From the IMG/VR virus record IMGVR_UViG_2660238423_000035: 41,368 bases of DNA; one strand, given 5' to 3'. Each line of letters begins with the position of its first letter. The stretch's first letter is position 1. Shown here one piece after another: positions 1 through 33,571 of this stretch. The notes under the pieces were generated by a model, which was not told where the DNA came from, did not search any database, and saw only the letters and a list, made by a program, of their open reading frames with translations. The stretch comes from a virus. Taxonomy: Duplodnaviria > Heunggongvirae > Uroviricota > Caudoviricetes. Position numbers and translations under genes: made by a program.

Positions 1-555
1 TCATTTATCTCCCACCGGAAACCTCTTATACAAAGTCGATATGCCAACATCATAGATGATCGCTACCTTCAGGCGAGGAACTCCTGATGCAATTAATCGC
101 CCGGCCTGCGCCCATTGTTCTGGTGTAAGTTTGGGACGACGTCCACCAATTCGTCCCTGTGCGCGAGCAGCCTCCAGTCCAGCTTTTGTTCGTTCAACAA
201 TCAGTTCTCGTTCCATTTCAGCCAGGGCCCCCATCACATGAAAGAAAAAACGCCCCATCGGTGTGCTGGTATCAATAGCATCCGTCAGGCTGCGAAAATT
301 AACGCCACGTTCGCGCAACTCCTCAACCAGAATGACCAGATGCCGCATACTACGCCCCAGCCGATCCAGCTTCCAGACAACCAGAGTGTCACCTGCCGAT
401 AATGTCCTGAGCAGTTTTTTCAGCCCCGGCCTTTCGGACTTTGTACCGCTTATCTTGTCTTCAAAAATCAGCTCGCATCCTGCACAGTTCAGCGCATTAC
501 GTTGTAGATCTGTGTTCTGGTCATTTGTTGACACACGTACATAGCCAATAAGCAT
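1..555 (-). CDS. Serine DNA invertase, Gin/Pin/Hin/Cin family (tail-fibre host-range switch)
   Basis: Translation from internal Met MLIGYVRVSTNDQNTDLQRNAL... (184 aa) is near-identical in pattern to Gin/Pin (catalytic Ser in YVRVST, C-terminal HTH); ORF track extends 12 codons upstream to 591. Confidence 0.9.
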   Translation of the reverse strand: MLIGYVRVSTNDQNTDLQRNALNCAGCELIFEDKISGTKSERPGLKKLLRTLSAGDTLVVWKLDRLGRSMRHLVILVEELRERGVNFRSLTDAIDTSTPMGRFFFHVMGALAEMERELIVERTKAGLEAARAQGRIGGRRPKLTPEQWAQAGRLIASGVPRLKVAIIYDVGISTLYKRFPVGDK

Positions 556-581
556 GGTAGATCTCCCTGACAAAAGCAGGA

Positions 582-1133
582 ATGATGCCATTTGCTCGTT
601 ATTTCTGCATTTTCATAAACGTTGGTTTAGGAGAAGGCTCAGCATTGCCTGTTGGCGTACCTGTTCCGTGGCCCTCAGCCACTCCGCCAACAGGCTGGCT
701 AAAATGCAACGGAGCAGCTTTTTCTGCTGAAGAATACCCGGAACTGGCAAAGGCTTACCCGACAAATAAATTGCCTGATTTACGTGGTGAGTTTATTCGT
801 GGCTGGGATGACGGACGTGGTATGGATACGGGGAGGGCAATATTATCAGCTCAGGGCGATGCCATACGTAATATCTATGGTGAGTTCAGAACTGTAAACA
901 CTGAAAATTATTCAATATGGGAAACAGTAGGCTCGTTTAAGGGGGCCATAGTGCCATTGAGTCCCTCTACAAACAATAGTTATTTCTCCTTAACCAGAAG
1001 TATGGTGACAGAAAGAGCAGACGGCGCTGTTTACCCAAAAGTGATTGGCCTTGATGCTTCAAGAATTGTTCCAACTGCAAACGAAAACCGTCCTCGTAAC
1101 ATTGCCTTTAATTATATCGTGAGGGCTGCCTGA
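582..1133 (+). CDS. Alternative tail-fibre C-terminal (receptor-binding) domain, currently in silent orientation with no constant N-terminus attached
   Basis: PVGVPVPWPSATPPTGWLKCNGAAFSAEEYPELAKAYP ... NIAFNYIVRAA matches the conserved C-terminal collar/tip motifs of enterobacterial side tail fibres; reading frame runs through the crossover site. Confidence 0.75.
   Translation: MMPFARYFCIFINVGLGEGSALPVGVPVPWPSATPPTGWLKCNGAAFSAEEYPELAKAYPTNKLPDLRGEFIRGWDDGRGMDTGRAILSAQGDAIRNIYGEFRTVNTENYSIWETVGSFKGAIVPLSPSTNNSYFSLTRSMVTERADGAVYPKVIGLDASRIVPTANENRPRNIAFNYIVRAA
610..635. other. Invertase crossover site (gix/pix-like), right end of invertible segment
   Basis: 26-bp sequence TTTTCATAAACG-TT-GGTTTAGGAGAA, imperfect inverted half-sites around a central dinucleotide as in gix/hix sites; inverted partner at 2221-2246. 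Confidence 0.7.
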
Positions 1134-1738
1134 TGAATAAAGCGGTATTAAATAACGAACTCATTGCTATAAAAGCGGGAGACATTACCATTTATAATTA
1201 TGATGGTGAAACGCGGGAATATATTTCCACATCAACTGAATATCTTGCTGTGGGTGTCGGTATCCCGGCATGTTCCTGTTTAGATGCTCCTGGCTCATAT
1301 AAAGCTGGTTATGCAATCTGCCGTTCTGCAGATTTTAACTCATGGGAATATGTGCCAGACCATCGCGGTGAAGTTGTCTATAACACCGAAACGGGAGAAT
1401 CAAAAGAAATCACAGCTCCGGGTGATTACCCTGAAAATACAACCACTATCGTCCCGTTAACGCCATACGATAAATGGGATGGTGAGAAATGGGTGACAGA
1501 TACTGAGGCACAGCATAATGCCGCAGTAGACGCGGCAGAAGCACAGCGCCAGTCACTGATTGATGCAGCAATGGCTTCCATCAGTCTGATTCAGCTGAAA
1601 TTACAGGCCAGACGTAAACTGACGCAGGCAGAAACAACCCGACTAAACGCTGTGCTGGATTACATTGACGCGGTGATGGCAACGGATACCAGCACCGCGC
1701 CGGTGGTTATCTGGCCAGTTCCTCCTGAGACGGTTTAA
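1133..1738 (+). CDS. Tail-fibre assembly protein (Tfa/Mu U-like), partner of the alternative fibre tip
   Basis: 201 aa; conserved Tfa C-terminus ...AEAQRQSLIDAAMASISLIQLKLQ...[17 protein letters not shown]; start overlaps stop of upstream fibre segment. Confidence 0.8.
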   Translation: MNKAVLNNELIAIKAGDITIYNYDGETREYISTSTEYLAVGVGIPACSCLDAPGSYKAGYAICRSADFNSWEYVPDHRGEVVYNTETGESKEITAPGDYPENTTTIVPLTPYDKWDGEKWVTDTEAQHNAAVDAAEAQRQSLIDAAMASISLIQLKLQARRKLTQAETTRLNAVLDYIDAVMATDTSTAPVVIWPVPPETV

Positions 1739-1928
1739 TCTCAATCAGAATGGGTTCGCCCTTCTCGTTAACAGATATTTCCATTCCTTCAGGGATTTCA
1801 GATGCAGTAAAAAACCAGTTATCTTCTGGTAATTCAACAGCCCCGGTCACGTCATGAAGACCGGGGATTACTTCAGTCAAAGTAACAGGATTAAACAGGC
1901 GCACAATAAACCCTCCAGGAAAAAGCAT
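1707..1928 (-). CDS. Small protein downstream of the currently expressed fibre tip; possible short tail-fibre assembly/chaperone protein
   Basis: 73-aa ORF inside the invertible segment, 3'-convergent and overlapping the alternative tfa; position equivalent to tfa in e14/Mu arrangements; weak resemblance to Tfa N-terminal region. Confidence 0.4.
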
Positions 1929-2571
1929 TTATTGATGGTGTTCCGTCGTACATCTGGCAGCGGACATAAAAACCGGTATTAGTGACCTGGTCATCCACGA
2001 TCATTGAAACGTGAACGTTATTAGATGTGCCCCCATAATCCGTTCCTATTCTTTCCGCTATGCTGATAAAACGTGAAAGCTTAGGTAGCGCAATAGGATA
2101 AACGACTTTAGCCAGTCCATTATTATTAGAACCACCCGTCCCAAAGACTTCTATTGCACCATCTGACCAGCGTATCCATGCACCATTGGCATTAGCTCCT
2201 CGCTGAATGACATATCTGGCTTCTCCCAAACCAAGGTTTTCGAGAGCCATTTTCACCGTGCCATCCGATTTGATATCGCCAAACGGATTCTTGCGGCTCA
2301 GGTATTCAACAGCAAACCCCGATCCCAGCAATTCAACAAAACCGGGCAGATCACCATTATCAAGCACATCCCGTTGCGTTTTATCACTTACAAACTGGGC
2401 CAGAGCTGCAGCAATAAAGCTGGCCTGCCGAATAACCTTATTGACTTGCGCACTGGAGGCTTTCCCTGCTGTAAATCCGGATAAAAGCGCAGGCAACGCT
2501 TCCCATTCCTCCTGCGACATAACATTGGCATTTTTACCCGTTGCGAATGCTTTAAAGTCATTTTTTGCCAT
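1891..2571 (-). CDS. Tail-fibre protein, current orientation (constant N-terminus plus 107-aa variable tip)
   Basis: Start MAKNDFKAF... coupled to upstream stop (TGATG overlap); crossover site lies within the gene at 2221-2246 (…[12 protein letters not shown]|ARYV…). Confidence 0.75.
2221..2246. other. Invertase crossover site (gix/pix-like), left end of invertible segment, inside tail-fibre gene
   Basis: TTCTCCCAAACC-AA-GGTTTTCGAGAG, inverted relative to the 610-635 site; encodes ...ENLGLGE... on the minus strand, while the 610-635 site encodes ...NVGLGE... on the plus strand. Confidence 0.7.
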
Positions 2572-3251
2572 CAGAGTAATACTCCCCATGCCCCTACATC
2601 AAAACCACTGATAAATTCGTTATCCATATCAAAACCAAAAAATTTTGAACCTTCCGATGGGGTTTCCACCGAAGGCGTTTCAATGCCACCCGCCCACACC
2701 CCAGCGGCTTTTACTGTGAGATATCCCTGTTTAATTGCAGCAATTAACTCACGCGATACATCTGAAATATCAGTATCAGGAAAGACCCAGACCGATATCG
2801 TCATGTCCTGGTTATCGACTATCTGCATTCGCAGCCCGGATCCTGCTGTTGCCGCGTCAAGAATTGCCGGAAGCGAATCATTCCGTCCGTCCCAGTTATT
2901 AATCGCAATCTTCGCTTTAAGGATGACACGATAAGTTTCATCGCTGAGGTACATGTATCCGGAATCAGGATCGTATGGTCCCTGCCATACACCCTGATCA
3001 TATCCAAGCCCGTCGGTATCCCAGCTGAAATAAACACCTGAGATAGGCTGGCTGACAACACGGCTACGTCCGATCCACAATCCCAGAATGTCAAGTTGCA
3101 CACCAACCGCAGAGTCAATATCAAATGCAGTAATCAGCCCTCTGGTGGCCGCCGCAACATCAATAAGCGGCCGGGTCATCAGATCAACATGTGCAAGAAA
3201 TTTAGGTTTGGTGGCGTGGTAGTTCGTGATTAGTTCGGTGTATTTGCTCAT
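2571..3251 (-). CDS. Tail protein, Mu gp48/YmfQ (DUF2313)-like
   Basis: 226 aa, located between baseplate J-like gene and tail fibre, as in Mu and e14. Confidence 0.65.
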
Positions 3252-4447
3252 GACTCCACCGTTATAACGATATTTTCCGGGGTACAGGACGCAGATTCGT
3301 TGTATCTGATATCAATGTTTGATGACGACAAAGCCCCCGGAGATTTCCCAATCGTCAGTTCCTGAATATCGTAATAGCGTGCATTCCCGCCACTCACCAC
3401 GCCAAGATTCGCCGGTGAGTAAATGCGACTTAAAAGGACCGAATCACCAATCATCAGACTATTGATATAGTCGGAAATAGCCTGCTGGATCTGCTGCCCT
3501 ATCTGTGAGGTATAACCCGTAAAAACTTTTAATTTAATCCGGGCATAAACAGGCACATCACTGGAACGCGAGAATTTGATTACATGGGGATTGCCGTATT
3601 TATCCGGAACCGTAACGGATGTTGTACCGTGAGTGGCTGTCCCCTGGCCTTTATTCCCTCTGATAGCCTGAGCAATATCCATCACATCACCGCCATCCAC
3701 AACTACAGCAACAGAGTGTGGCGGTAACCCGTTACCGTCCTCCGAACCAGTATCGTTTTCATAGAGTTTGTGGCGGGTTACACCGGTAACATTAGAAACA
3801 GCACCATCCAGTGCTTCAAATGGGGTTATTGATGGCAACGCAACACTTTGCGACTGGCGGATACGTAACTCCGCATCAGTTTCTGCCGGAGAGCCAACAG
3901 TAGCCGCAGCAGGATTAGTTACCGAAACCCAGCCACGGGTTGGCGTATTAATTTCAGTGATAGTTCCAGCCAGCGCCGCCACTGCACCACTGACGGAACA
4001 TGTTGCGGTCGCCATCACTGTACCATCCACGCCGACCACCACTGAAGCAGGCAAACGCCATATCACACTATTACTGTCTTTCACGCTGCCATTAATGATG
4101 GTTGTTCCGGCAGTTCCTGTAAGAAGCAAATCAACCGTAGAATTCGTCGCGCCTTTACGTGAAATACCATTTATTTTCACGTTACTGGTCAGTGCGGCCC
4201 CATAGCCGGTTGCCGGTGAAAAACAGTTGTAGACAGTTATCGCAGTATTATTGGCATCATGAATCGCCAGCGCCATCAGAGCCACCATCTGGCCGTCTTT
4301 ACTATCCGGTTCGAGGTAGGCATCACTGCCATAAATCTGCTGAAAATAGCTAATCAGGGTGCTGAGTATCGTCTGATAATCAGGCGCACTGATCCCCTCC
4401 GCGGTTACCTTTGCAGATAAACCGAGAGAATCAAGGTTCAGAGCCAT
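3248..4447 (-). CDS. Baseplate J-like protein (Mu gp47 family)
   Basis: 399 aa; position and size; start overlaps upstream stop. Confidence 0.7.
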   Translation of the reverse strand: MALNLDSLGLSAKVTAEGISAPDYQTILSTLISYFQQIYGSDAYLEPDSKDGQMVALMALAIHDANNTAITVYNCFSPATGYGAALTSNVKINGISRKGATNSTVDLLLTGTAGTTIINGSVKDSNSVIWRLPASVVVGVDGTVMATATCSVSGAVAALAGTITEINTPTRGWVSVTNPAAATVGSPAETDAELRIRQSQSVALPSITPFEALDGAVSNVTGVTRHKLYENDTGSEDGNGLPPHSVAVVVDGGDVMDIAQAIRGNKGQGTATHGTTSVTVPDKYGNPHVIKFSRSSDVPVYARIKLKVFTGYTSQIGQQIQQAISDYINSLMIGDSVLLSRIYSPANLGVVSGGNARYYDIQELTIGKSPGALSSSNIDIRYNESASCTPENIVITVES

Positions 4448-24050: not shown

Positions 24051-24276
24051 TGTTAAATTTGTTAAAAAAGGAAGTTATTTAACATAATGTACGTTATAGG
24101 AACCACACGATCCCCGCTCGCAATAGATTTGCGATGAAAGGCCTATTTAATCAACTTAAGTGGTTCAAAATGACGAAATTCGAGTGAATAAAAGGTGCAT
24201 AAAAAAGGGCAAAAACTGCATAGCGTTTTTTCGCGACGAAAACCCTGTTTTATTAACTTTTACTGAGAATAGAGCA

Positions 24277-24303
24277 TTAAAAAAGGCCCCCTTGCGGGAG
24301 CCT
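24277..24303 (-). terminator. Intrinsic terminator (minus strand), candidate tR'-like terminator downstream of Q
   Basis: Minus-strand GGCUCCC-GCAA-GGGGGCC hairpin (7 bp with one G-U pair, GNRA-type loop) followed by TTTTTT. Confidence 0.6.
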
Positions 24304-24456
24304 CTTCGTGATGAACTGTTTTCAACAGATATCAGGCTAATCGGCTTTTTGGAATTCCACAACTATTTTTTATCTTACCTTGATACCTGAAGCCGTCAGG
24401 TGTTTACGGCAATCCTGAATACCATCTGATTCCCTTACGTGATTGATTACTGGATA

Positions 24457-24879
24457 TTATGCCGCCGGGCAGCTCCTTCGCAAAGTCCTGATAGCCTTAG
24501 GCTTTGACTGAACTGCTTGATCCATTTCCAGAACCACGTCCAGCATAGCCAGGCAGCCGTCGATAAATCCCTCTGCAGCCTGGAGCCTCTTCAGAACTTG
24601 AGTGTGTGATACGCCGAGCTTCACACCCATAGCCCTCACAGGCATCGCCTGGATGTAATGCCACTCAAGGAGCGTACACAGGTACGGATCTTTTTTCTTC
24701 AGGCAGTTCATAGCAGAGCTGATGATCAGACCGTCATTGTCACTGCACTTCAGCCGCCCGGCTTGCGTTGCAGGTAGCAGATTCTTAAATCCAGCGGAAA
24801 CAGGTGGATAGTAGACACTGCAACCTTCGCTCGCAGCCCAGCCCCCCCATCGCTCTAAAACCAGTCGAATATCACGCAT
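24457..24879 (-). CDS. Late-gene antitermination protein Q (phage 82/21-type family)
   Basis: 140 aa; N-terminus MRDIRLVLERWGGWAA... and Cys-rich core match the lambdoid Q antiterminator family pattern; located just upstream of lysis genes. Confidence 0.75.
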   Translation of the reverse strand: MRDIRLVLERWGGWAASEGCSVYYPPVSAGFKNLLPATQAGRLKCSDNDGLIISSAMNCLKKKDPYLCTLLEWHYIQAMPVRAMGVKLGVSHTQVLKRLQAAEGFIDGCLAMLDVVLEMDQAVQSKPKAIRTLRRSCPAA

Positions 24880-24904
24880 AGCTCTGACCTCTACGTTTTG
24901 CTAC

Positions 24905-25195
24905 TTACCGTTCATCTTTCATTTTGAGGTTAGAAAGATGTTTAAGCCGCTGGCAATACGCTTTCCAGTAAGCCTCAGAGTGCATCGGGTGCTCGATATC
25001 GCTATACAGCCATACACAGTCGTCGCGCTGAGTTACCGGCGGTGGCGCCAACACATCTCGAGTGGCCTGCGTTAGTGCTCTTTTGAAGAAAAAAGCCTCC
25101 CCTAAGGGCTGGTAGTCTCTGTTGAATGCTTCCCAAGCCCCCTCAGCTGTTTTGCGGATACCGTAAGGCATACATTGGCGGAATATCTTTGACAT
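24905..25195 (-). CDS. Hypothetical protein (96 aa), nin-region-like position
   Basis: ORF between origin-like repeats and Q. Confidence 0.45.
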   Translation of the reverse strand: MSKIFRQCMPYGIRKTAEGAWEAFNRDYQPLGEAFFFKRALTQATRDVLAPPPVTQRDDCVWLYSDIEHPMHSEAYWKAYCQRLKHLSNLKMKDER

Positions 25196-25244
25196 CGTCG
25201 TATCCTCATTTAGTTATTTGCTAATTTTTTCAAGTTAATTTCCG

Positions 25245-25507
25245 GGTGACGGCTAGGTGACGCGTAATTACATATCCGTCACCTGCTGCAAAGCGCGCCA
25301 TATAAGGCCTGAAGATGTTTTAGGTGACAGGTGACGGTTGATTTTAGTTCTCTATATATAAGCGATCGTATAATACCTAAAATACACACTCTCGCGTATA
25401 TAGTTTTAAATTCTGCCGTCACCTGTCACCTTTAGCACATTTCCCATTGTTTTATATATACTTTTTAAGGTGACGCTTAAGCGTTTTGCCGTCACCTAGC
25501 CGTCACC
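25245..25507. repeat. Iteron array: about ten copies of GGTGAC(G)/(C)GTCACC in both orientations with AT-rich spacers; putative replication origin
   Basis: Copies read at approx. 25245, 25256, 25277, 25323, 25330, 25417, 25425, 25469, 25491, 25502; AT-rich tracts at about 25350-25415 and 25450-25466; directly 3' of the primase-polymerase gene. Confidence 0.55.
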
Positions 25508-25510
25508 TTT

Positions 25511-27772
25511 TTACAATCCAGATTGCAAAATTTCGCAAGATTTATATATTTCGCGCAATTCTTCGTTGCTGAAATCGTTATTTTTTACAAGAATCCAAAT
25601 CCTATATACAAACCCGTCAATTTTTACGCGTACGGGTTCCCGCTTTGTTCTTTCTTTCAAAATGCGAGTAATATGCTTCTGGTTAATTTCTACATCCATT
25701 CCTGCTTCTGCCAGTATTGCGTTAACAATTTGTTGATAAGTCATTGCTGGCACAGGCGGATTATCCAGGATTTCAATAAGAGCAGCCTCCACATCGCTCT
25801 TATTGCTTTCAATCATCAGAAGGCGTTCTTTCGTCTCGGGGGCGCGCTGCCAGTTAAAGCGAGACAGGTCAACGCCCATCAGATACCAGTACACCTGGGC
25901 GATAAAGTCGCTGTCGCTTAGCGCACCGTACAGGCTGGCGTAATGCTCTTCAGTTGCGGCGAAGTCAGGGCCCCCCAGCACAGCGATACGTCGGTCTTCC
26001 TCTGGCAGCGCCAGCGCATCAAAGTGGTTGGTGTAGAACAGAAAGCCGGTGTATATATCCATCGTTTTTTTGCTGCCATATTTGCGGTTCACTTCAAACC
26101 GTGGTTCTGTCAGCACGTCACGGATCTTATCGTTCACCTCATACCGCTTATCATTTTCGCGCACCTCGTCAATGGTGCATAGAAGCGTATTGTACAGATA
26201 GTCATGGAACTGGTTATCGCACAGGATCTTCATGCGAGTACGAGCACAGTTCCACGGACCAAGCACGCGCTCCATTAACTGGCTGACCCATCCTCTGCCC
26301 GTACCATGTGCGGTAGCCACATGCAGAATAGAAATCGGGCATCGACGCTCCGGACGCTGAACCATCCACCCCAGACGGGCGATGAAAAACTCGCGCTGCC
26401 AGGCATCAGGTACCAGATACGCCATATGATTAAGGAACGTGGACACCTTACTTGTATCCGCTGTACGTGGATGCTCAGGCATATAAAATTCGTTTATCTC
26501 AAACCGCCCGTCGAAACGCTCGATAATACGTCCCGCACCGGGCTTATAGCCTGTCGTCTCAGCAATCTTCTTATGCCGATGCTCTATCCACCGTTTGGTT
26601 GCGGGAGTTGGTTGCCCTTTCCCTTCTGGCGGGAACTGGTAAGGCGCCATCAGGTTTTTGAACGACTTCATATCCATCATGCACTGATATGGCGGTCGGC
26701 TAAGATCACATACCTGGTCACCCTCGATGACGTAGATAAAGCGTTCCAGAAAATGAGCTGTCATATCTGTATTAATATCGGTAAATTCAGGCTTATCGCC
26801 ATCTTCAACCACCGTGAGATCTTCGAACAGGGATTGCGTATAGCCGTAGCCTTCCAGCCAGTCGGCATCAGTAAGCCCCGCATCGGTGTTGTGCATGCTT
26901 TTAAAATGTCCCTGTTCAAATCCCCCCGTCCCTTTTGGGAAATACTTAATGGATGTTTCGCTGCAACCGTTGCTGTATTCTGACTCATCCCGAAACGGTT
27001 TCAGATTGCGGGAACCATCAGAGCTGACTGACAGAGTCCACCCGTTCGCGTCAAGCCAGTCGGCGACATCATCTGTCGCGGAAGGATCAACACAGGAAAG
27101 ATCACGCTGACGTCCTGCACCTGCGGTATAGCTGTCTTTCACGGGTAAGTTATCCGCCAGACGCTGCCACAGGCTTTCGAGCTGTTCAGATGTAATTTTC
27201 AGAGGTTCGCCGGGCAGACCGCAGTCCCACTGAATACGTTCGCCTGCCGGATGGGTACCACAAGCCACAAACTGCTGGCCCTTAGCGAGCAGCTCTATTT
27301 GTTTGTTTTCGCCTTCCAGGCGGTGACCACGTTTACGGTAGTCGCCATCAACAGCAATCAGGTACAGGCATTTATGACTGTCAGCCCGCCAGCGACGTGG
27401 CGGAAGTTCCCCCAGGCATGACAGGATAATATTGCGTACGATCTCCTGCATCCCGGCGTCATTGATATCGCAGTCCAGAGCCACCACCCCGTCGCCAGTA
27501 CGAACGCAAATACCGTAATCGGGTTCGTTCGACCACCGGGCAAAATCGTTTTCCGTAACAACATAGTTAGCCCAGTCGGGGATACCAACAACCTTACGTT
27601 GGCCATTGTAGCGACTGGGGGTTTTGCCGAAATTATGAGACAGCTTGCTATTAGGCGACAGTTCTGCACAGGGATTGGACACCACAGGTAAAAGCCTGTC
27701 TGTCATCCCCAACACCAGATCGAAGTGGAACCACTCATCGGGCGTAGCTCCCCATGGTTTGTTATCAGACAT
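25511..27772 (-). CDS. Replication protein with N-terminal primase-polymerase (prim-pol) domain
   Basis: 753 aa; acidic DxD-type motif …GVVALDCDINDAG… in N-terminal region typical of bifunctional primase/polymerase domains; no clear Walker A motif was found in the C-terminal half, so helicase activity is not asserted. Confidence 0.65.
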   Translation of the reverse strand: MSDNKPWGATPDEWFHFDLVLGMTDRLLPVVSNPCAELSPNSKLSHNFGKTPSRYNGQRKVVGIPDWANYVVTENDFARWSNEPDYGICVRTGDGVVALDCDINDAGMQEIVRNIILSCLGELPPRRWRADSHKCLYLIAVDGDYRKRGHRLEGENKQIELLAKGQQFVACGTHPAGERIQWDCGLPGEPLKITSEQLESLWQRLADNLPVKDSYTAGAGRQRDLSCVDPSATDDVADWLDANGWTLSVSSDGSRNLKPFRDESEYSNGCSETSIKYFPKGTGGFEQGHFKSMHNTDAGLTDADWLEGYGYTQSLFEDLTVVEDGDKPEFTDINTDMTAHFLERFIYVIEGDQVCDLSRPPYQCMMDMKSFKNLMAPYQFPPEGKGQPTPATKRWIEHRHKKIAETTGYKPGAGRIIERFDGRFEINEFYMPEHPRTADTSKVSTFLNHMAYLVPDAWQREFFIARLGWMVQRPERRCPISILHVATAHGTGRGWVSQLMERVLGPWNCARTRMKILCDNQFHDYLYNTLLCTIDEVRENDKRYEVNDKIRDVLTEPRFEVNRKYGSKKTMDIYTGFLFYTNHFDALALPEEDRRIAVLGGPDFAATEEHYASLYGALSDSDFIAQVYWYLMGVDLSRFNWQRAPETKERLLMIESNKSDVEAALIEILDNPPVPAMTYQQIVNAILAEAGMDVEINQKHITRILKERTKREPVRVKIDGFVYRIWILVKNNDFSNEELREIYKSCEILQSGL

Positions 27773-27775
27773 GGG

Positions 27776-27976
27776 TTACGCCTTTTGTCTAGCTGTCACT
27801 TCCTGAAAAAGCTTTTCTATCGCACGTACTGTAGAAAAGCGAGGGTCAGAATGAACCCCGGTGAGAAGCCGACTAATAGAAGACTGCTTCACGCCTGCAA
27901 TTTCGGCAATTTGGTTTTGGGTATACCCTGAATCAATCAAGCTTTTGACCATCTCTTGTGGTGTTAGTCCGGACAT
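27776..27976 (-). CDS. Cro-like HTH transcriptional regulator
   Basis: 66 aa, HTH …TQNQIAEIAGVKQSSISRLL…, divergent from cI-like repressor, first gene of the minus-strand early operon. Confidence 0.7.
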   Translation of the reverse strand: MSGLTPQEMVKSLIDSGYTQNQIAEIAGVKQSSISRLLTGVHSDPRFSTVRAIEKLFQEVTARQKA

Positions 27977-28117
27977 ATTTAAGTCTCCACTTTCGTCTAT
28001 AGCGCAAATTTATACGAAAACGGATTATTCAGCAATACGGCAATTCTATATCATCCTGGATTAAAATATCCGATAACGCATAATCACCGTCCCTGTATAC
28101 AACATGGATGAATCCAA
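27977..28117. promoter_or_regulatory. Divergent cI/cro promoter-operator region
   Basis: 140-bp gap between divergent repressor genes; TATAAA -10-like element for the cro direction; palindromic GGATTAAAATATCC element; exact operators not resolved. Confidence 0.5.
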
Positions 28118-28792
28118 ATGATTGATACTACCGATATCCTTTCTCAAAACATCAAGTACCTGATGGACAAAGCCAAGATAAGCTCGATAACTGAGCTGGC
28201 ACGTCGGTTACAACTGAACCAACCAACGCTACACAGGCTGGTATCAGGAGAGGTGAAAGATCCGAAATACGCAACGTTAAAGCAGATCGCCGACTACTTC
28301 CACGTGTCACCAATAGACCTGGCAGAAAGGAGCCTTCAAGAAATGGAGAAAGAGGACGCGACAGGTATAAAAACGTATATTTCTCTTAGGTTTAATAAAG
28401 TACCTGTTTTGGGAAACACTCAGCTAGGCGTTGGAGGACTTTGGAGCGACACCCAATATTCAGTAGGTAGCAGTGATGGTTTCATATACTGGCCGACAAA
28501 GGATGAAGATGCATACGCCCTGAAATGTGTTGGTGATTCAATGATGCCTAGAATCAAAGAGGGTGAGTTCGTAATCGTCGAACCCAACCACGACTACACT
28601 CCTGGTGATGAAGTACTTGTGGTTACCCGGGACGGTGAGGTCATGGTTAAAACCTTCTTGTTCGAACGCGATGGCCTGTTCCATCTAATGTCTGTAAATG
28701 AAGATCATCCACCAGTCAGAGTACCACGCGAAAACATTGAAAAAATCCATTACGTGGCGGGGATCGCCAAATCCGCGCTACGCATGTACTAA
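28118..28792 (+). CDS. CI-like repressor (HTH plus LexA/S24 autopeptidase domain)
   Basis: 224 aa; N-terminal HTH; C-terminal S24 signature …CVGDSMMPRI… (Ser) and …VMVKTF… (Lys). Confidence 0.9.
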   Translation: MIDTTDILSQNIKYLMDKAKISSITELARRLQLNQPTLHRLVSGEVKDPKYATLKQIADYFHVSPIDLAERSLQEMEKEDATGIKTYISLRFNKVPVLGNTQLGVGGLWSDTQYSVGSSDGFIYWPTKDEDAYALKCVGDSMMPRIKEGEFVIVEPNHDYTPGDEVLVVTRDGEVMVKTFLFERDGLFHLMSVNEDHPPVRVPRENIEKIHYVAGIAKSALRMY

Positions 28793-28823
28793 CCTTTACA
28801 GTCTGATAACTTACTTCTGATCA

Positions 28824-28856
28824 AACCGCTCTCCACAAGGGCGGTTTTCTTATTTG
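28824..28856 (+). terminator. Intrinsic terminator after repressor gene
   Basis: AAACCGC…GCGGTTT hairpin followed by TCTTATTT, about 30 nt after cI stop. Confidence 0.5.
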
Positions 28857-28876
28857 CAAAATAATTCATTTTCGTA

Positions 28877-28905
28877 TTGACACAAAATCCCATAACGCAT
28901 ATAAA
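28877..28905 (+). promoter_or_regulatory. Near-consensus sigma70 promoter (plus strand) of unknown target
   Basis: TTGACA - 17 bp - TATAAA read at approx. 28877-28905; downstream transcript would be antisense to the 3' region of the 189-aa gene. Confidence 0.5.
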
Positions 28906-29167
28906 TACGATATCGCATAATTAATGCGTTTTTTAATACCAGCTCTTTAACAAACTGAACCGCGTGACAGGTAAGCCGCAGTACTCCTGGCAAAATGAAA
29001 TGGCACCCGATGGGATCGAGGTAAGCGCCGAGTCCGTATGCGTACGGTAAGCGTAGAGGACAACACCGCGACGAACTGATAAGTCACGCAAGTTGAAACG
29101 CCCCGACGATGGGGCGCTTAGTTCCTTTAACTCTGGGTGGCCGGAAGGGTACCCATGCTTAAAGAAA

Positions 29168-29737
29168 TTACTGGTTGTAAGGATCGTAATCCGTGATTGC
29201 CTTCCCCGGATTTTCATCTTCAGAAGGCAGTCGGGCTTCTAAAGCATTTCGGTTGAACAGATAGGAAGCCCTACAGTACGAACAAACCATATTAACGGCT
29301 CGCCCAAGGCCTGGCTTAGTAACCAGACCTTCCGCTTGCAATATAGATTTTCTCTTTTGCTCGTAGCAATTGGGACAAATATAAACCGGAGATTGGTCAG
29401 CATCTGCAGAAAGCTTGCTGCGATAGACCAGAGGACCCCGCATAGGCTGGTAAAGTTCATAGCTCGCCGCTTCAGCGGCCCAGTTCTCTTGCTTTACTTT
29501 CTCATTTTCCAGTTCAACAATTTTCTCCTTAGCCGCAATCAGCAGCTCCTGAAGCGACATTTGCTGCATCTGAACATCCATTAGCTTATCGAGTAAGATG
29601 TGCGTCTTCTCTTTAACTGCATAGTCGACAGTCAGATTCTGAATCTCTCTTGCTGCTCCAACCGCGCTTTTAATTGCTCCTCCCACGCCGGATAACGATT
29701 CAGTTATCCGGGAAAGAATTCCTTTTTCTTCAGACAT
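29168..29737 (-). CDS. Hypothetical coiled-coil/zinc-ribbon protein (189 aa), cargo gene beside immunity region
   Basis: Opposite strand to flanking cI and early-left operon; predicted coiled coil (…LQELLIAAKEKIVELENEKVKQENW…) and two CxxC pairs (CPNC … CSYC). Confidence 0.6.
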   Translation of the reverse strand: MSEEKGILSRITESLSGVGGAIKSAVGAAREIQNLTVDYAVKEKTHILLDKLMDVQMQQMSLQELLIAAKEKIVELENEKVKQENWAAEAASYELYQPMRGPLVYRSKLSADADQSPVYICPNCYEQKRKSILQAEGLVTKPGLGRAVNMVCSYCRASYLFNRNALEARLPSEDENPGKAITDYDPYNQ

Positions 29738-29876
29738 ATCTAATCTCTCTCAAACTGTAGGGGTGAAGAGATATTAGACGATTTCTCACTGTAGGGGTAC
29801 AAGGAGAACCACCTCGCCTGATGTGGTTAAAAGCAGGCACTCGATGATATCCATGTAATTGCTGTGTGTAGTCTTT

Positions 29877-29903
29877 GCCCGCCGCAAGTGACGGGCTTTT
29901 TTA
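29877..29903 (+). terminator. Intrinsic terminator (plus strand) upstream of early-left operon
   Basis: GCCCG…CGGGC hairpin followed by TTTTTT. Confidence 0.5.
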
Positions 29904-29961
29904 TGTCTGAAAGCGCACTCGCAACAGCGCGCTCCCCGATATGAAAAAAGGAATACAACCG

Positions 29962-30111
29962 ATGAAACCTGAACACATCCATCGACTGACGGGGCGCGAT
30001 GTTCTCCGTTATCGCCGTAAAAACTTCGATTTGATGACCGGTCTGGCCGTTGCCACTGCGCTCGGTCTGATCATCACTTTCATTCTCCTTGTAGCGAGGA
30101 CCACAGTATGA
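29962..30111 (+). CDS. Small membrane protein (49 aa; 56 aa if started at 29941), not in the ORF track
   Basis: ATG with AGGA RBS; C-terminal hydrophobic helix …LMTGLAVATALGLIITFILLVA…; stop overlaps start of the 300-aa gene (ATGA). Confidence 0.4.
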   Translation: MKPEHIHRLTGRDVLRYRRKNFDLMTGLAVATALGLIITFILLVARTTV

Positions 30112-31010
30112 GTTTAGAAACCAGTCTCGAACTTAATAATCAACTTCTGGCACAACATAATGCGCTGCTTGAACGTCTTATCCGCACAATGGCATCAGGC
30201 ATTGTTATGCATCCTGACACGATTTCACGAGTGCAGGAATGTCGGGATACAGCAACTGAAACTGAAAATATGTCAGCGGCAATGACACTGGATGATCTGG
30301 AGTTCAGCGACGTTATCGCACTGGCTGGTTTCTACCCGGTAGCCACCCCTATCACAGAAGACATGCTGCAACGTGCTGTTGCCTACCGTGATGCTGAAGG
30401 CGATAAACGAGTTGTTCAGATTGATGCTCTCGACAGCGCATTGCAGGGCGTCAAACGAGCCAGGGCGCTGCTTAAACCTGCTCTCCTGGACCTGTCCCGT
30501 AACATCCTTAAGTTCTGGGACGACCTGCCAACCATCGGCGAGCGACGTGCTTTTGCCGAGCAGCTACTTGATGCACCTGCGGATGGGCGTGATGAAGTTA
30601 AGCCGAAAAAGGCCAGTAACAAGGATGGAGAACGCACGGGGCCGTTTTACGTCAAAAATGTATCCGGCACAGCAGCCAGTGAACTCCACACCTTACGCAA
30701 GTTGAACGAGATGCTGAAAAAAGGCCATATCGAGATCAACCGTGTTGAGTACCTTCAGCTGCAGGAAGAATTTGCACGCAGAGACGCAGCAAATTCCAGC
30801 CAGAATAATGACGCCAAAGATGACCATACAATTGATTTCGCGGCACTACGCAAACAAGCTGAAGGGTTGATCCTCCAGTTAGCAAAAGGGGGTTACCGGG
30901 CAGAAGCTATTGCAATTCTGGAAAAACAGGGAGCCAGGAAACTTGGTGAAGTAACGGATGAAAATCTCGCTGAAGTAATCACCCTGGCTGAAAAAGCACT
31001 GGAGGGTTAA
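30108..31010 (+). CDS. Hypothetical protein (300 aa), first large gene of early-left operon
   Basis: ORF, coupled to neighbours; no motif recognised. Confidence 0.55.
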
Positions 31011-31012
31011 TC

Positions 31013-32314
31013 ATGCCAGACGTTCATGCACAACTTTCTCCATCATCAGCGCATCGATGGATGCGCTGCCCAGGAAGTCTGGCGCTGGAGGCCACACAAC
31101 CGGATAAAGAAACAACTTTTGCAATCGAGGGCACTGCAGCGCACGCGCTTGCTGAAAAAGTTCTACGAAACAGGCAAAGCCACCCGGAACACTACGCCGG
31201 ATGCAATGTTTCTATGTTTCTCGGCTCATACCCCCTTCGCGAAAATCCTGATGATACATCTGGCCCACAGGTGGATGATGAAATGGTCGAAGCCGTTGGC
31301 CGGTATGTTGATACGGTCTGGACTCTTGCACAGAATAATGAAATATTGGTTGAACAACGTGTTGATTTCTCACATATAACGGGTGTGGAAGAATCTTTCG
31401 GAACTGCCGACGGAATAATCATTGCTGGTAGCGAATTACAAATCCACGACCTGAAATATGGCAAAGGCGTCCGCATTGATGCAGAACAAAATGAGCAACT
31501 ACAACTGTATGCTCTGGGTGCGCTCGAACAATTCAGCATGCTGTATGACTTTGAGACTGTAAGATTATTTATTCACCAGCCAAGGCTCAACCACGTTTCA
31601 GAATGGTCGTTAACCGTACAGGAACTTCAGTCTTTCGGTGAACGGGCACAGAAGGCCGCAACCAGTGCGATCCTTGTTCTCAATATTGCTGAATGCGAAG
31701 GCATTGAGACACTACCTCTGGAAAACTTCATACCTGGAGAAAAACAGTGCCGCTTCTGTAAAGCAAAAGCTATTTGCACTGCCCAGAAAATGCAGCATTT
31801 ACAAACAGCGGCCAGCGATTTTGAAGATCTGACAAAGCCTGTCAGCGAAATAATCACCAATGCCAGCGCACGTGTACCTCTGTTAACCATTGAGCAGCTT
31901 GCGGAGATCTATAGCCAGGCCGACTTTATTGAATCCTGGCTAAAGGCAGTACGAGACCGGGTTCACAATGAACTCAATGCCGGACATCCGGTACCGGGGT
32001 TTAAACTGGTAACAGGAAAACAAGGTAACCGGGCCTGGAGTGATGAAGAGGCAGCTCGCGCACTTCTGAAGGACCAGTTCAGGTACAAAACTGAAGAAGT
32101 ATTCGACTTTAAACTTATTAGCCCCACAAAAGCCGAAAAACTTATCAAAAAGGCCAGTCCGCGCCGCTGGTCAAAAGTCGAGGCACTGATAACACGAGCT
32201 GATGGTAAACCCACCATCGTTCCCGAGTCAGACCCACGCCCCGCACTCAATATCAACCCTGTAAATGATTTCGACGACGTATCCGACGATACGCTAACCG
32301 CAGACCTCATCTGA
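31013..32314 (+). CDS. PD-(D/E)XK nuclease, DUF2800 / Cas4-like
   Basis: 433 aa; N-terminal …[14 protein letters not shown]… and C-terminal Cys cluster …[10 protein letters not shown]… typical of Cas4/AddB-type Fe-S nucleases; …IHDLKYGKG… catalytic-like motif. Confidence 0.7.
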
Positions 32315-32329
32315 TTTAAGGAAATCCCC

Positions 32330-32878
32330 ATGAAACTGAAGCTGAACAATGTTCGTCTGGCCTTCCCGTCTCTGTTTGAAGCTAAAACTGTAAACGGCGA
32401 AGGCGATCCGCGTTTCTCCGCAGTATTTTTAATGTCTCCCAAACACCCACAACTGGAAGAAATCCGTAAAGCTATGAAGCAGGTAGCGAAGGAAAAATGG
32501 GGGGAGAAGTGGGAGTCCATTTATAACCAGCTGGAGAAAAAACTCAATCTGTGCCTGCATGATGGTGATGAAAAAGCAGAGTATGAAGGCTTTCCCGGCA
32601 ATTTCTTCCTGAACGCTGCTAACAAAGCGCGCCCAGCTGTTCTTGATCGCGATCGTTCGCCACTAATTCAGGCTGATGGACGTCCCTATGCAGGGTGCTA
32701 TGTAAACGCCGTTATCGATATCTGGGCACAGGACAATAATTTCGGTAAACGCATTAATGCCTCACTCGGCGGAGTCCAGTTCCTGCGAGACGGCGATGCA
32801 TTCGCTGGCGGCGGAGTGGCAAGCGCTGACGATTTTGACGATATCAGCGAAGGTGCTGATGCTGAAGCACTAATTTAA
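32330..32878 (+). CDS. DUF2815 family ssDNA-binding-like protein
   Basis: 182 aa; position after DUF2800 gene as in PolA-type phage replication modules; acidic C-terminal tail (…DDFDDISEGADAEALI). Confidence 0.6.
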   Translation: MKLKLNNVRLAFPSLFEAKTVNGEGDPRFSAVFLMSPKHPQLEEIRKAMKQVAKEKWGEKWESIYNQLEKKLNLCLHDGDEKAEYEGFPGNFFLNAANKARPAVLDRDRSPLIQADGRPYAGCYVNAVIDIWAQDNNFGKRINASLGGVQFLRDGDAFAGGGVASADDFDDISEGADAEALI

Positions 32879-32929
32879 AAATATTCATCCCCCAGCTACG
32901 TGCTGGGGTATCTCATGAGGGAAAGTATA

Positions 32930-33571
32930 ATGTCACAGCCCGTATTAACTAATCACCTTAAAACTCAAATCATCAATAACGCACTTGAGAAAGCGGGTAT
33001 CCCCAAACGTAAATCAGCACTACGAGCTGCTCGTGTTGAATGGGCCGAACGTGTTCGGCTTGCAGCTATCGGGGGCGTAGAGAAAGAAGCTGAAATATTA
33101 AAAAATATAAAAAAAATAGAAACACTGGTATCAAAAGTCCCCGAAGCATTAAAAAACAATAGTTCTTTAATTCGAAAAGATTGCTGCATATATCTCAATC
33201 TGGCTGGAGCCAGAGCAAACATTTATTTCAATGGCAACTACAGAGGTTATGAATCAGGAGCCCCCGAGCATATTAATAAAATAACACCTGCAGAATTTAC
33301 TCTACTTGGCGAAGATCCTCTGGTAACGGAGTTTTATAGCTTTGATGCTCTCTACACACAAATTAAAAGTGATGAAACCGAAATCATACAGAACGTCAGC
33401 GCGGCTCTAAATAAAGTTCGGACAGTAAAACAATTACTGGATGTATGGCCCGAAGCTAAAGAACTGCTTCCAACAGACGCACCGCCAGTCCCTTTAGCAC
33501 CAGCAGTACATCGAGAGACATTAAATGAAATGATAGGCCTTCCTACCAATACAGTGTCTGATACTCAATAA
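32930..33571 (+). CDS. Hypothetical protein (about 213 aa), AT-rich insert
   Basis: Start chosen at ATG preceded by GAGG RBS (ORF track opens at 32900); visibly AT-rich; no motif recognised. Confidence 0.55.
   Translation: MSQPVLTNHLKTQIINNALEKAGIPKRKSALRAARVEWAERVRLAAIGGVEKEAEILKNIKKIETLVSKVPEALKNNSSLIRKDCCIYLNLAGARANIYFNGNYRGYESGAPEHINKITPAEFTLLGEDPLVTEFYSFDALYTQIKSDETEIIQNVSAALNKVRTVKQLLDVWPEAKELLPTDAPPVPLAPAVHRETLNEMIGLPTNTVSDTQ

Follow-up and report, generated by a model that had tools for sequence, protein, structure and literature searches.

A two-state tail-fibre segment of the e14 P-region and Mu G-segment kind at the end of an apparently complete Escherichia coli prophage

Organization of the fibre locus

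The window (the whole 41,368-nt stretch of DNA analysed here) derives from an Escherichia coli host and holds a myovirus-type prophage that appears complete and is inserted between yfhH and yfhL, with the fibre switch at its end. A CI-like repressor, a Q antiterminator, a replication module, lysis genes and a full structural set have all been retained, and the prophage may therefore be inducible. Its backbone genes include members of the DUF2612 wedge, Baseplate_J, DUF3383 and DUF3277 families, and we take the DUF3383 and DUF3277 genes to be those for sheath and tube.

The tail-fibre gene lies on the minus strand, and its constant N-terminal part (2247-2571), which stands outside the invertible segment, matches the PHROG tail fibre family over residues 7-123 (E=5e-65). 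ATG 2571, giving a fibre of 226 aa, is a likelier start than the alternative ATG 2589, because it overlaps the stop codon of the upstream gene as TGATG and because RefSeq homologues are annotated in this way; this upstream gene, to which the fibre gene is translationally coupled, encodes a DUF2612 baseplate-wedge protein (2571-3251). Beyond the residues GLGE comes the currently expressed variable part, a short tip of 107 aa ending in WRVYCAPV (1891-2220, minus strand, stop codon included), with which a small minus-strand ORF of 65 aa is paired (1707-1904; GTG start, GGAGG 7 nt upstream), hereafter mini-Tfa. The original prediction was right about the 107-aa tip and about the small ORF, which has 73 aa at its full extent (1707-1928) and 65 aa from the GTG used by RefSeq. 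On the plus strand, a silent ORF (582-1133) comprises a short leader, MMPFARYFCIFINVGLGE, and a Collar-type tip (636-1133) ending in NIAFNYIVRAA, paired with the full-length tail-fibre assembly gene tfa (1133-1738, 201 aa). The last 32 nt of the mini-Tfa ORF are antisense to the 3' end of tfa; across the mini-Tfa family, the ORF always terminates on meeting the opposing tfa gene. A constant 5' part outside the segment and two opposed 3' parts inside it, both in frame, make up the arrangement expected of a fibre switch.

Adjoining the segment on the minus strand is the gene for a DNA invertase of the serine recombinase type, pin (1-555), whose product starts MLIGYVRVSTNDQ and has 184 aa, position 555 being the likelier start within an ORF of 196 aa (1-591). 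Pfam domains Resolvase (residues 15-147, E=1e-51) and HTH_7 (residues 150-191, E=9e-11) are found on the 196-aa ORF, and Pin matches PHROG DNA invertase (E=2e-95) and the crystal structures of Mu Gin (3UJ3 and 4M6F, E=6e-93). It is 95% identical to K-12 PinE over 184 aa, its homologue in the near-identical prophage of E. coli EH2252 is annotated pinE, and its N-terminus, MLIGYVRVSTNDQNTDLQRNAL, equals that of Gin except for the initiator residue, GTG (V) in the Mu annotation. Judged from these comparisons, Pin is a full-length member of the Gin/Pin/Cin/Hin subfamily with an intact catalytic N-terminus, in keeping with the Gin/Pin-family invertase that had been predicted beside the segment. Invertases of this kind are typified by a length of about 185-195 aa, a resolvase catalytic domain at the N-terminus (catalytic Ser near position 9-10) and an HTH at the C-terminus.

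Recombination by this subfamily draws on an enhancer that acts in cis and carries two Fis sites, located within the invertase gene in its 5' part (PMC3798978). Over its first 240 nt, pin can be aligned with K-12 pinE, to the eye almost the same sequence, and with Mu gin, in both cases with no internal gaps, and the truncated invertase of O26 strains retains exactly the 5' 267 nt, an observation whose bearing on the enhancer is suggestive only. The Fis sites of Hin are 48 bp apart; a simple motif scan (G-N13-C with an AT-rich centre, first 260 nt of pin, pinE, gin and the invertase gene of phage S164) identified no Fis enhancer, giving weak candidates at pin positions 78 and 138, 60 bp apart, and no conserved 48-bp spacing among the four genes.

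Two 26-bp crossover sites in inverted orientation bound the segment, at the positions originally predicted. The invertase-proximal, pix-like site (610-635) is TTTTCATAAACGTTGGTTTAGGAGAA, that is TTTTCATAAACG-TT-GGTTTAGGAGAA with the central TT at 622-623, and the site within the expressed fibre gene (2221-2246) is TTCTCCCAAACCAAGGTTTTCGAGAG, or TTCTCCCAAACC-AA-GGTTTTCGAGAG with the central AA at 2233-2234. Their coding contexts are the reverse of those first assigned: the site carrying ENLGLGE is the one at 2221-2246, encoding LENLGLGE on the minus strand inside the expressed fibre gene, and that at 610-635 encodes FINVGLGE on the plus strand at the head of the silent ORF. The sites match at 20 of 26 positions; the longest inverted repeat of the region is 617-636 with 2220-2239 (18 of 20 positions complementary). 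Their central cores, TT and AA, are reverse complements and compatible, as expected of invertase sites, in which a 2-bp core stands between two imperfect half-sites of 12 bp. A 19-nt site pattern with up to three mismatches allowed finds only these two matches in the 41-kb window and none in 100 shuffles; with just two sites in the window, a shufflon or Min-like multi-site system is ruled out. Compared with the e14 sites, taken from the K-12 genome itself, the site at 2221-2246 is identical, and that at 610-635 is one base off TTTTCATAAACGTTGGTTTGGGAGAA, with A at 630 where e14 has G. The e14 sites have been inverted experimentally by PinE and PinQ (PMC12529663; PMC4272514).

Inversion between near-identical prophages

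Inverting the segment in silico at the central dinucleotide keeps the fibre gene in frame, as does every other cut position tried, and changes its product from 226 to 282 aa (from ATG 2571) or from 232 to 288 aa (from ATG 2589). As the original prediction had it, the silent tip is joined to the constant N-terminus and the 201-aa assembly gene comes to stand behind it; the fibre so formed has 282 aa and a Collar-type tip. Both fibre products can be found in public genomes, either annotated or catalogued. The 2700 nt inverted in silico equal the sequence of EH2252 at 100.0% in one piece, and the constant part fused to the Collar tip is annotated in that strain as a 282-aa phage tail protein.

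Orientation was compared between strains in two independent pairs of near-identical prophages. The window and EH2252 have flanks that are 99.99% identical, with 617-2239 reversed; the inner half-sites GGTTTAGGAGAA and TTCTCCCAAACC are exchanged while the outer halves have stayed in place, which locates the exchange within 622-629, central dinucleotide included. In the O26:H11 strains 00_3230 and 97-3250, the flanks are 100% identical (4342 and 4481 nt) and a 1623-nt segment is reversed. The junction of the constant part with the short tip occurs in 6 complete E. coli genomes and that with the Collar tip in 62, and the exact 226-aa product is found in 488 index blocks. A single orientation or an out-of-frame fusion, which had been named as counting against the prediction, is therefore not what is seen: EH2252 carries the inverted form, and the orientation of the window is widespread. 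These genome comparisons indicate that the inversion occurs in nature, with an exchange interval that includes the core dinucleotide.

Assemblers can mis-orient segments between inverted repeats, and the differences in orientation could be read as artefacts of this kind. However, the repeat is only about 20 nt long, far below read length, the swap of half-sites is exactly reciprocal, both orientations recur across many independent complete genomes, and inversion of the homologous e14 segment was shown by PCR and qPCR (PMC4272514, PMC12529663), all of which make an assembly origin extremely improbable. We also consider it very unlikely that the segment is a fossil, flipped once and now locked in the short-tip orientation, for example with pin unexpressed or with the left-site base change blocking recombination. 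The A at 630 would fit such a block, and the equivalent, invertase-proximal site of phage S164 looks degenerate (TTCGTTTAGCAGAA half-site); yet the same A/G polymorphism has moved to the other site in EH2252, where the flanks are 99.99% identical, which implies that sites bearing it recombined very recently, and the integrity of Pin also speaks against a locked state. The locus is very probably a tail-fibre switch with two states, driven by an invertase and of the same kind as the e14 P-region and the Mu G-segment.

Two tips and their assembly partners

The short tip borne by the fibre in the orientation of the window (state A) gives a weak, sub-threshold match to Pfam Gp53-like_C (E=0.008). 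In the fibre model, residues 121-226 reach a pLDDT of about 85-95, and Foldseek aligns the short-tip model with the fibre foot of R1/R2 pyocins (6CT8, 6CL6, 6CXB and 6CL5) at E values of 9e-7 to 1e-5 and a probability of 1.0; the sequence identity is 18-20%, and the match comes from a monomer model of a presumed trimer. For the short tip, a fold resembling the lectin-like foot domain of R-pyocin fibres is accordingly predicted. It occurs on several unrelated N-termini, the joint being always NLGLGE. The silent tip, displayed in the opposite orientation (state B), matches Pfam Collar (E=1e-15) and PHROG tail collar fibre (E=4e-80) and, by sequence against the PDB, the phage short tail fibre 9CUY (E=3e-25) and the T4 gp37 tip 2XGF (E=1e-17); it is 60% identical to K-12 stfE. 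For the fibre and for Tfa (201 aa), the same kind of PDB search returned no meaningful matches. Each of the two tips has the look of a genuine receptor-binding domain.

The two tips are unequally provided with assembly genes: a complete Caudo_TAP gene goes with the Collar tip (E=4e-28; product 89% identical to K-12 TfaE, annotated tfaE in EH2252), but only the 65-aa protein with the short tip. Mini-Tfa aligns with positions 1-66 of the 145 of PHROG 5400 (E=3e-23), with an additional weak match to a Tfa PHROG. Its 141 homologues, nearly all of 57-90 aa, span the Enterobacterales, an alignment of 24 sequences has 14 invariant columns, and the dN/dS against phage S164 is 0.10, which points to purifying selection. 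Conservation, constant short length and dN/dS together rule out a decaying remnant, and no continuation in another frame was seen among the minus-strand ORFs over 1133-1738. The short-tip state had been hinted to be a lesser or degenerate one; on the contrary, both tip and small ORF are conserved modules. The AlphaFold model of mini-Tfa is a small beta-rich fold (pLDDT 86) for which Foldseek found nothing significant in the PDB (best E=0.67), so that its link to Tfa is one of sequence: its similarity to tail-fibre assembly proteins is confined to their N-terminal half, which binds the fibre, and the longer homologues with which it aligns have a C-terminal half that looks Tfa-like, whereas mini-Tfa lacks this conserved C-terminal domain. 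Since the partner of the short tip is built in this way, the fibre of state A may not assemble correctly. A relative of 128 aa in Cronobacter phage JK004 has an extension that resembles, as judged by eye only, the C-terminal part of the protein annotated in S164 as tail-fibre assembly protein.

A tentative proposal, to which we give somewhat less than even chances, is that the pyocin-like foot and a 57-65-aa mini-Tfa that has kept only the variable fibre-binding N-domain and lost the C-terminal trimerisation domain form a unit in which mini-Tfa acts as a stand-alone tip partner or cap. If so, mini-Tfa would represent a tail-fibre assembly protein reduced to its minimal form. A separate part of the proposal is that the flip in the O26 strains, where the local invertase is truncated, would mean that segments of this kind are routinely driven in trans by invertases of other prophages.

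The leader of the silent ORF raises the possibility that the switch serves the host instead of, or besides, the phage, through a free leader-plus-tip protein, formed when inversion places a tip behind the leader ORF next to pin (582 onward), that blocks the adsorption of other phages. Inversion of the e14 P-segment creates StfE2, composed of the stfE leader and the tip of StfP, and this protein keeps phage T2 from adsorbing (Kirigo et al. 2025, PMC12529663). The leader, MPFA(R/C)YF(C/F)IFINVGLGE, is conserved with its ATG between the window and K-12, and a 127-aa ORF of leader plus short tip is annotated as a CDS in EH2252. However, the short tip shares only about 32% identity with that of StfP, and no convincing promoter was found for the leader ORF: a scan of 1-3300 yielded fewer promoter-like sites than shuffled sequence did, and its terminator-like sites were close to chance in number. 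The prophage, moreover, looks complete, unlike e14, making a role in phage host range the simpler explanation. A host role is unlikely on this evidence, although the two roles are not mutually exclusive.

Under the preferred reading, that of a phage fibre switch, the fibre gene would be read from the late operon, on the minus strand. The codons outside the segment are the first 119 (2571-2247); beyond them, the reading frame passes through the 26-bp site (2221-2246) and enters the tip cassette that happens to face it. Pin would bind both sites, cut at the central dinucleotides (TT 622-623 and AA 2233-2234) and exchange strands by subunit rotation, flipping the 1611 bp between the cuts, probably aided by an enhancer at the 5' end of pin to which Fis binds. 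State A would produce a fibre of 226 aa whose foot is lectin-like, followed by the 65-aa N-domain-only Tfa, and state B the 282-aa fibre with a Collar-type tip like that of T4 gp37, followed by the 201-aa Tfa. We infer the dependence on Fis, expression and, from the unrelated predicted folds of the tips, a difference in receptor or host specificity between the states. A lysogen population would therefore release particles with two receptor specificities.

Relation to known switches and significance

The parallel drawn in the original prediction with the e14 P-region and the Mu G-segment holds, as do its other testable elements. Closest is the e14 P-region of K-12 (pinE, stfP/tfaP, stfE/tfaE): besides PinE, TfaE and the StfE-type Collar tip, with the identities given above (95%, 89% and 60%), the two loci share the leader ORF, the ~28 residues with which the constant part ends, and downstream genes that converge and overlap alike, and the state of the window is the reference orientation of MG1655. 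By contrast, e14 is a defective remnant, the rest of the constant region here is unrelated to StfP, and, in addition to its divergent sequence, the short tip has a partner of 65 aa against the 137-aa TfaP. The G-segment of Mu with Gin (Sc/Sv/U, Sv'/U') and the C-segment of P1 with Cin likewise have a constant 5' part outside, two opposed tip-plus-assembly cassettes and the invertase just outside, along with 26-bp sites with an AAACC-NN-GGTTT core. The Mu segment is larger, however (3 kb versus 1.6 kb), its fibre has about 500 aa rather than 226 or 282 aa, and the flanks of the sites in the window are unlike gix. The variable parts of Mu S and S' are related to each other; the two tips in the window belong to unrelated fold families. 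P2-like Escherichia phage S164 carries the same cassette of short lectin-like tip and mini-Tfa beside a Pin-like invertase, but on another phage backbone and with the degenerate-looking site described above. Invertible segments of P2-like prophages also include those of EPEC prophages (Goldberg et al. 2014), and detection of such switches in E. coli from whole-genome sequencing has been published (PMC4272514).

The switch is of a known type, with a mechanism and family that are textbook knowledge, and it resolves no open question. It does explain why assemblies differ in naming the tail-fibre product of this locus, some having a "hypothetical protein" of 226 aa and others a "phage tail protein" of 282 aa, and the swapped polymorphic half-sites show cleanly, in a natural case, where the crossover falls. 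Known best from e14, a defective remnant, the classic Pin/P-segment switch is here found in working order in a contractile-tail prophage that appears complete and in which it can still act as a host-range bet-hedging device.

An invertible segment beside a serine-recombinase gene

The leading 2.6 kb of the window begins with a serine-recombinase gene, pin (1-555, minus strand, or 1-591 from an upstream ATG), followed by a silent plus-strand ORF made up mainly of a Collar-type fibre tip (582-1133), a 201-aa Caudo_TAP assembly gene, tfa (1133-1738, plus strand), a small ORF on the minus strand (1707-1928; 1707-1904 if it starts at a GTG codon) and the minus-strand tail-fibre gene, which runs from 2571 or 2589 to its end at 1891, with baseplate genes (DUF2612, Baseplate_J and others) upstream on the same strand. 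Two 26-bp sites lie within this region, one at 610-635, where it encodes FINVGLGE on the plus strand as the silent ORF begins, and one at 2221-2246, inside the expressed fibre gene, where it encodes LENLGLGE on the minus strand. The sites agree at 20 of 26 positions in inverted orientation and form the longest inverted repeat of the region (18/20). The site pattern matches only these two places in 41 kb and gave no match in 100 shuffles. The original prediction quoted both site sequences exactly and swapped their placing, assigning the left site to the expressed fibre and the right one to the silent ORF, which is its sole error.

The segment was reversed in silico with cuts at the central dinucleotides (623-2233) and, in addition, at four more symmetrical pairs of positions; each time the constant N-terminus joined GSALPVGVPVPWP...NIAFNYIVRAA in frame, as had been predicted. 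Counted from the ATG at 2589, the inverted fibre has 288 aa and the present one 232; counted from the ATG at 2571, they have 282 and 226 aa. The present tip is 107 aa long, as originally claimed. The start at 2571 overlaps the stop codon of the upstream gene and is the RefSeq choice for homologues.

Opposite orientations in near-identical prophages

A search of 5,426 complete E. coli genomes with the window's own orientation gave 94.3% identity as the best full-length match; the 2700 nt inverted in silico gave one unbroken match of 100.0% identity, in E. coli EH2252. Alignment of the whole window with EH2252 yields flanks of 21.9 kb and 8.0 kb at 99.99% identity, with 617-2239 reversed. The half-sites provide a natural sequence marker of the event: the window's left site reads ...AAACG-TT-GGTTTAGGAGAA and its right site TTCTCCCAAACC-AA-GGTTT..., and the corresponding sites of EH2252 read ...AAACG-TT-GGTTTGGGAGAA and TTCTCCTAAACC-AA-GGTTT..., so that the inner half-sites are swapped and the outer halves unmoved. 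Such a pattern is expected of reciprocal exchange at the core, and it limits the crossover to 622-629. A locked, fossil switch is unlikely, given that the half-site swap is very recent and the invertase intact.

A second, independent flip distinguishes E. coli strains 00_3230 and 97-3250, in which a 1623-nt segment is reversed between flanks of 4342 and 4481 nt at 100% identity. Both orientations therefore exist, as the original prediction required, and its two-site invertible tail-fibre switch is confirmed as an observation and supported as an interpretation. An assembly artefact is an unlikely source of the orientation difference, since the repeat is only 20 nt long, the half-site swap is reciprocal and many independent genomes are involved. 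The junction of the constant part with the short tip occurs in 6 complete genomes and that with the Collar tip in 62; the assembly index lists the window's exact 226-aa product in 488 blocks, with its gene context unchanged.

In both 00_3230 and 97-3250 only the first 267 nt of the adjoining invertase remain (3995-4261 of loci L006 and L007), yet the segment is still oppositely oriented between the strains, which suggests that another invertase acts on it in trans, perhaps with the enhancer still provided by the 5' remnant. Separately, four E. coli chicken isolates with chromosomes of 5,067,659 bp carry a related invertase and segment (90.6% identity to 106-2237 of the window), in the window's orientation in DG341-1 (CM144243) and inverted in DG342-2, DG343-1 and DG351-2 (CM144242, CM144241 and CM144240), likely a further recent flip within one clone.

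The short tip and its small assembly-protein relative

The fibre structure was modelled as a monomer of a trimeric fibre, and its N-terminal helical part is poor, as expected. Residues 121-226 are modelled confidently (pLDDT about 85-95) and match the foot domains of R1/R2 pyocin fibres (6CT8, 6CL6, 6CXB and 6CL5; E=9e-7 to 1e-5), with weaker matches to lectins including SLL-2 and discoidin. The short tip is found on at least four unrelated N-termini, with the NLGLGE joint every time, and has relatives at 58-66% identity in Cronobacter, Cedecea and Enterobacter. With this tip domain confidently modelled and carried by several N-termini, and with the family of the small ORF conserved, the short-tip state is not degenerate, contrary to a hint in the original prediction that it is the lesser form.

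For the small ORF the best reading is a start at the GTG, which has GGAGG 7 nt upstream; this gives 65 aa and agrees with the RefSeq annotation. Its product aligns with positions 1-66 of a PHROG of 145 positions, has a weak match to a Tfa PHROG, and is modelled with confidence (pLDDT 86), although a structure search against the PDB returned no significant neighbour. Together with 141 homologues in E. coli, Enterobacter, Salmonella, Citrobacter, Cronobacter, Kosakonia, Hafnia and Yersinia, it ends after about 57 conserved residues, followed by a short variable tail where the gene meets the opposing tfa. Between the window and Escherichia phage S164, dN/dS is 0.10 with dS saturated. Published Tfa proteins are modular, their variable N-terminal domain binding the fibre and their conserved C-terminal domain serving trimerisation (PMC9608196); on this basis the family, hereafter mini-Tfa, is predicted to be an N-domain-only form of tail-fibre assembly proteins. 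Its members, of 57-65 aa, are widespread in Enterobacterales prophages and unannotated, every one being labelled 'hypothetical protein'.

Related cassettes occur in other phages. In Cronobacter phage JK004 (L005 2140-2887, gene_2 and gene_1), a 119-aa ORF starting LGELAST... comes immediately after a fibre gene of 418 aa; the start of this ORF carries the LGE motif encoded by the window's crossover sites, and a full-length, 128-aa mini-Tfa relative follows. By eye, the C-terminal extension of that relative resembles the C-terminal part of the annotated tail-fibre assembly protein of S164. In this 94-kb phage the pair, in direct orientation, looks like a tip cassette kept as a spare or left as a fossil. 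P2-like S164 has the window's short-tip plus mini-Tfa cassette in the silent position, adjoining a Pin-like invertase; its invertase-proximal site (L004 2605-2630), TTTTCATAAACGTTCGTTTAGCAGAA, is changed at two positions of the inner half-site, because of which this copy of the switch may be locked.

Relation to e14 and Mu, and the role of the switch

The likeness to the e14 P-region and Mu G segment drawn in the original prediction is borne out. Relative to the e14 prophage remnant of K-12, the window's invertase is 95% identical to PinE, the 201-aa protein 89% identical to TfaE and the Collar tip 60% identical to StfE; the last ~28 residues of the constant fibre part are shared with StfP, and the e14 sites are identical to the site on the right of the window's segment and differ by one base from that on the left. 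Pin matches crystal structures of Mu Gin (E=6e-93), and the sites share the AAACC-NN-GGTTT core of Mu gix. Judged by these sequence likenesses, the switch is a member of this well-known kind. Experiments have shown that PinE inverts the e14 P segment and that PinQ does so in trans, and both orientations are documented side by side in K-12 cultures (PMC12529663; PMC4272514). The established mechanism of Hin and Gin involves a Fis-bound enhancer, a looped invertasome and subunit rotation (PMC3798978). A search of the sequence located no convincing Fis sites; by homology, Pin would nevertheless use the Fis-bound enhancer step.

In e14 the corresponding product of leader and tip, StfE2, is reported in a 2025 paper to block adsorption of phage T2 (PMC12529663), and a comparable host-defence role could be envisioned for the leader-plus-tip ORF adjoining pin, whose leader (582-635, MMPFARYFCIFINVGLGE) retains an ATG and is conserved with the K-12 stfE leader. 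We consider such a role improbable, as the window's short tip is just 32% identical to the StfP tip and a promoter search found no promoter. The window is a prophage spanning pin to a tyrosine integrase adjoining yfhL, with a full contractile-tail and head gene set, lysis genes and a 9.2-kb block (24168-33343) encoding a Q antiterminator, a 753-aa primase-polymerase/DUF5906 protein, a CI-like S24 repressor, a DUF2800/PD-(D/E)XK nuclease, an Enc34-type ssDNA-binding protein (SSB) and an Nmad5 nucleotide-modification-associated protein. EH2252 has an IS1 element instead of this block in an otherwise 99.99% identical prophage, so its copy is crippled, and the window's copy looks complete and possibly inducible. 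For this reason, a putative role in phage host range is the simplest reading of the switch. Within this well-known kind of system, three features are of modest interest: two tips that are unrelated to each other, the conservation of the mini-Tfa, and evidence of a segment flipping despite a truncated local invertase.
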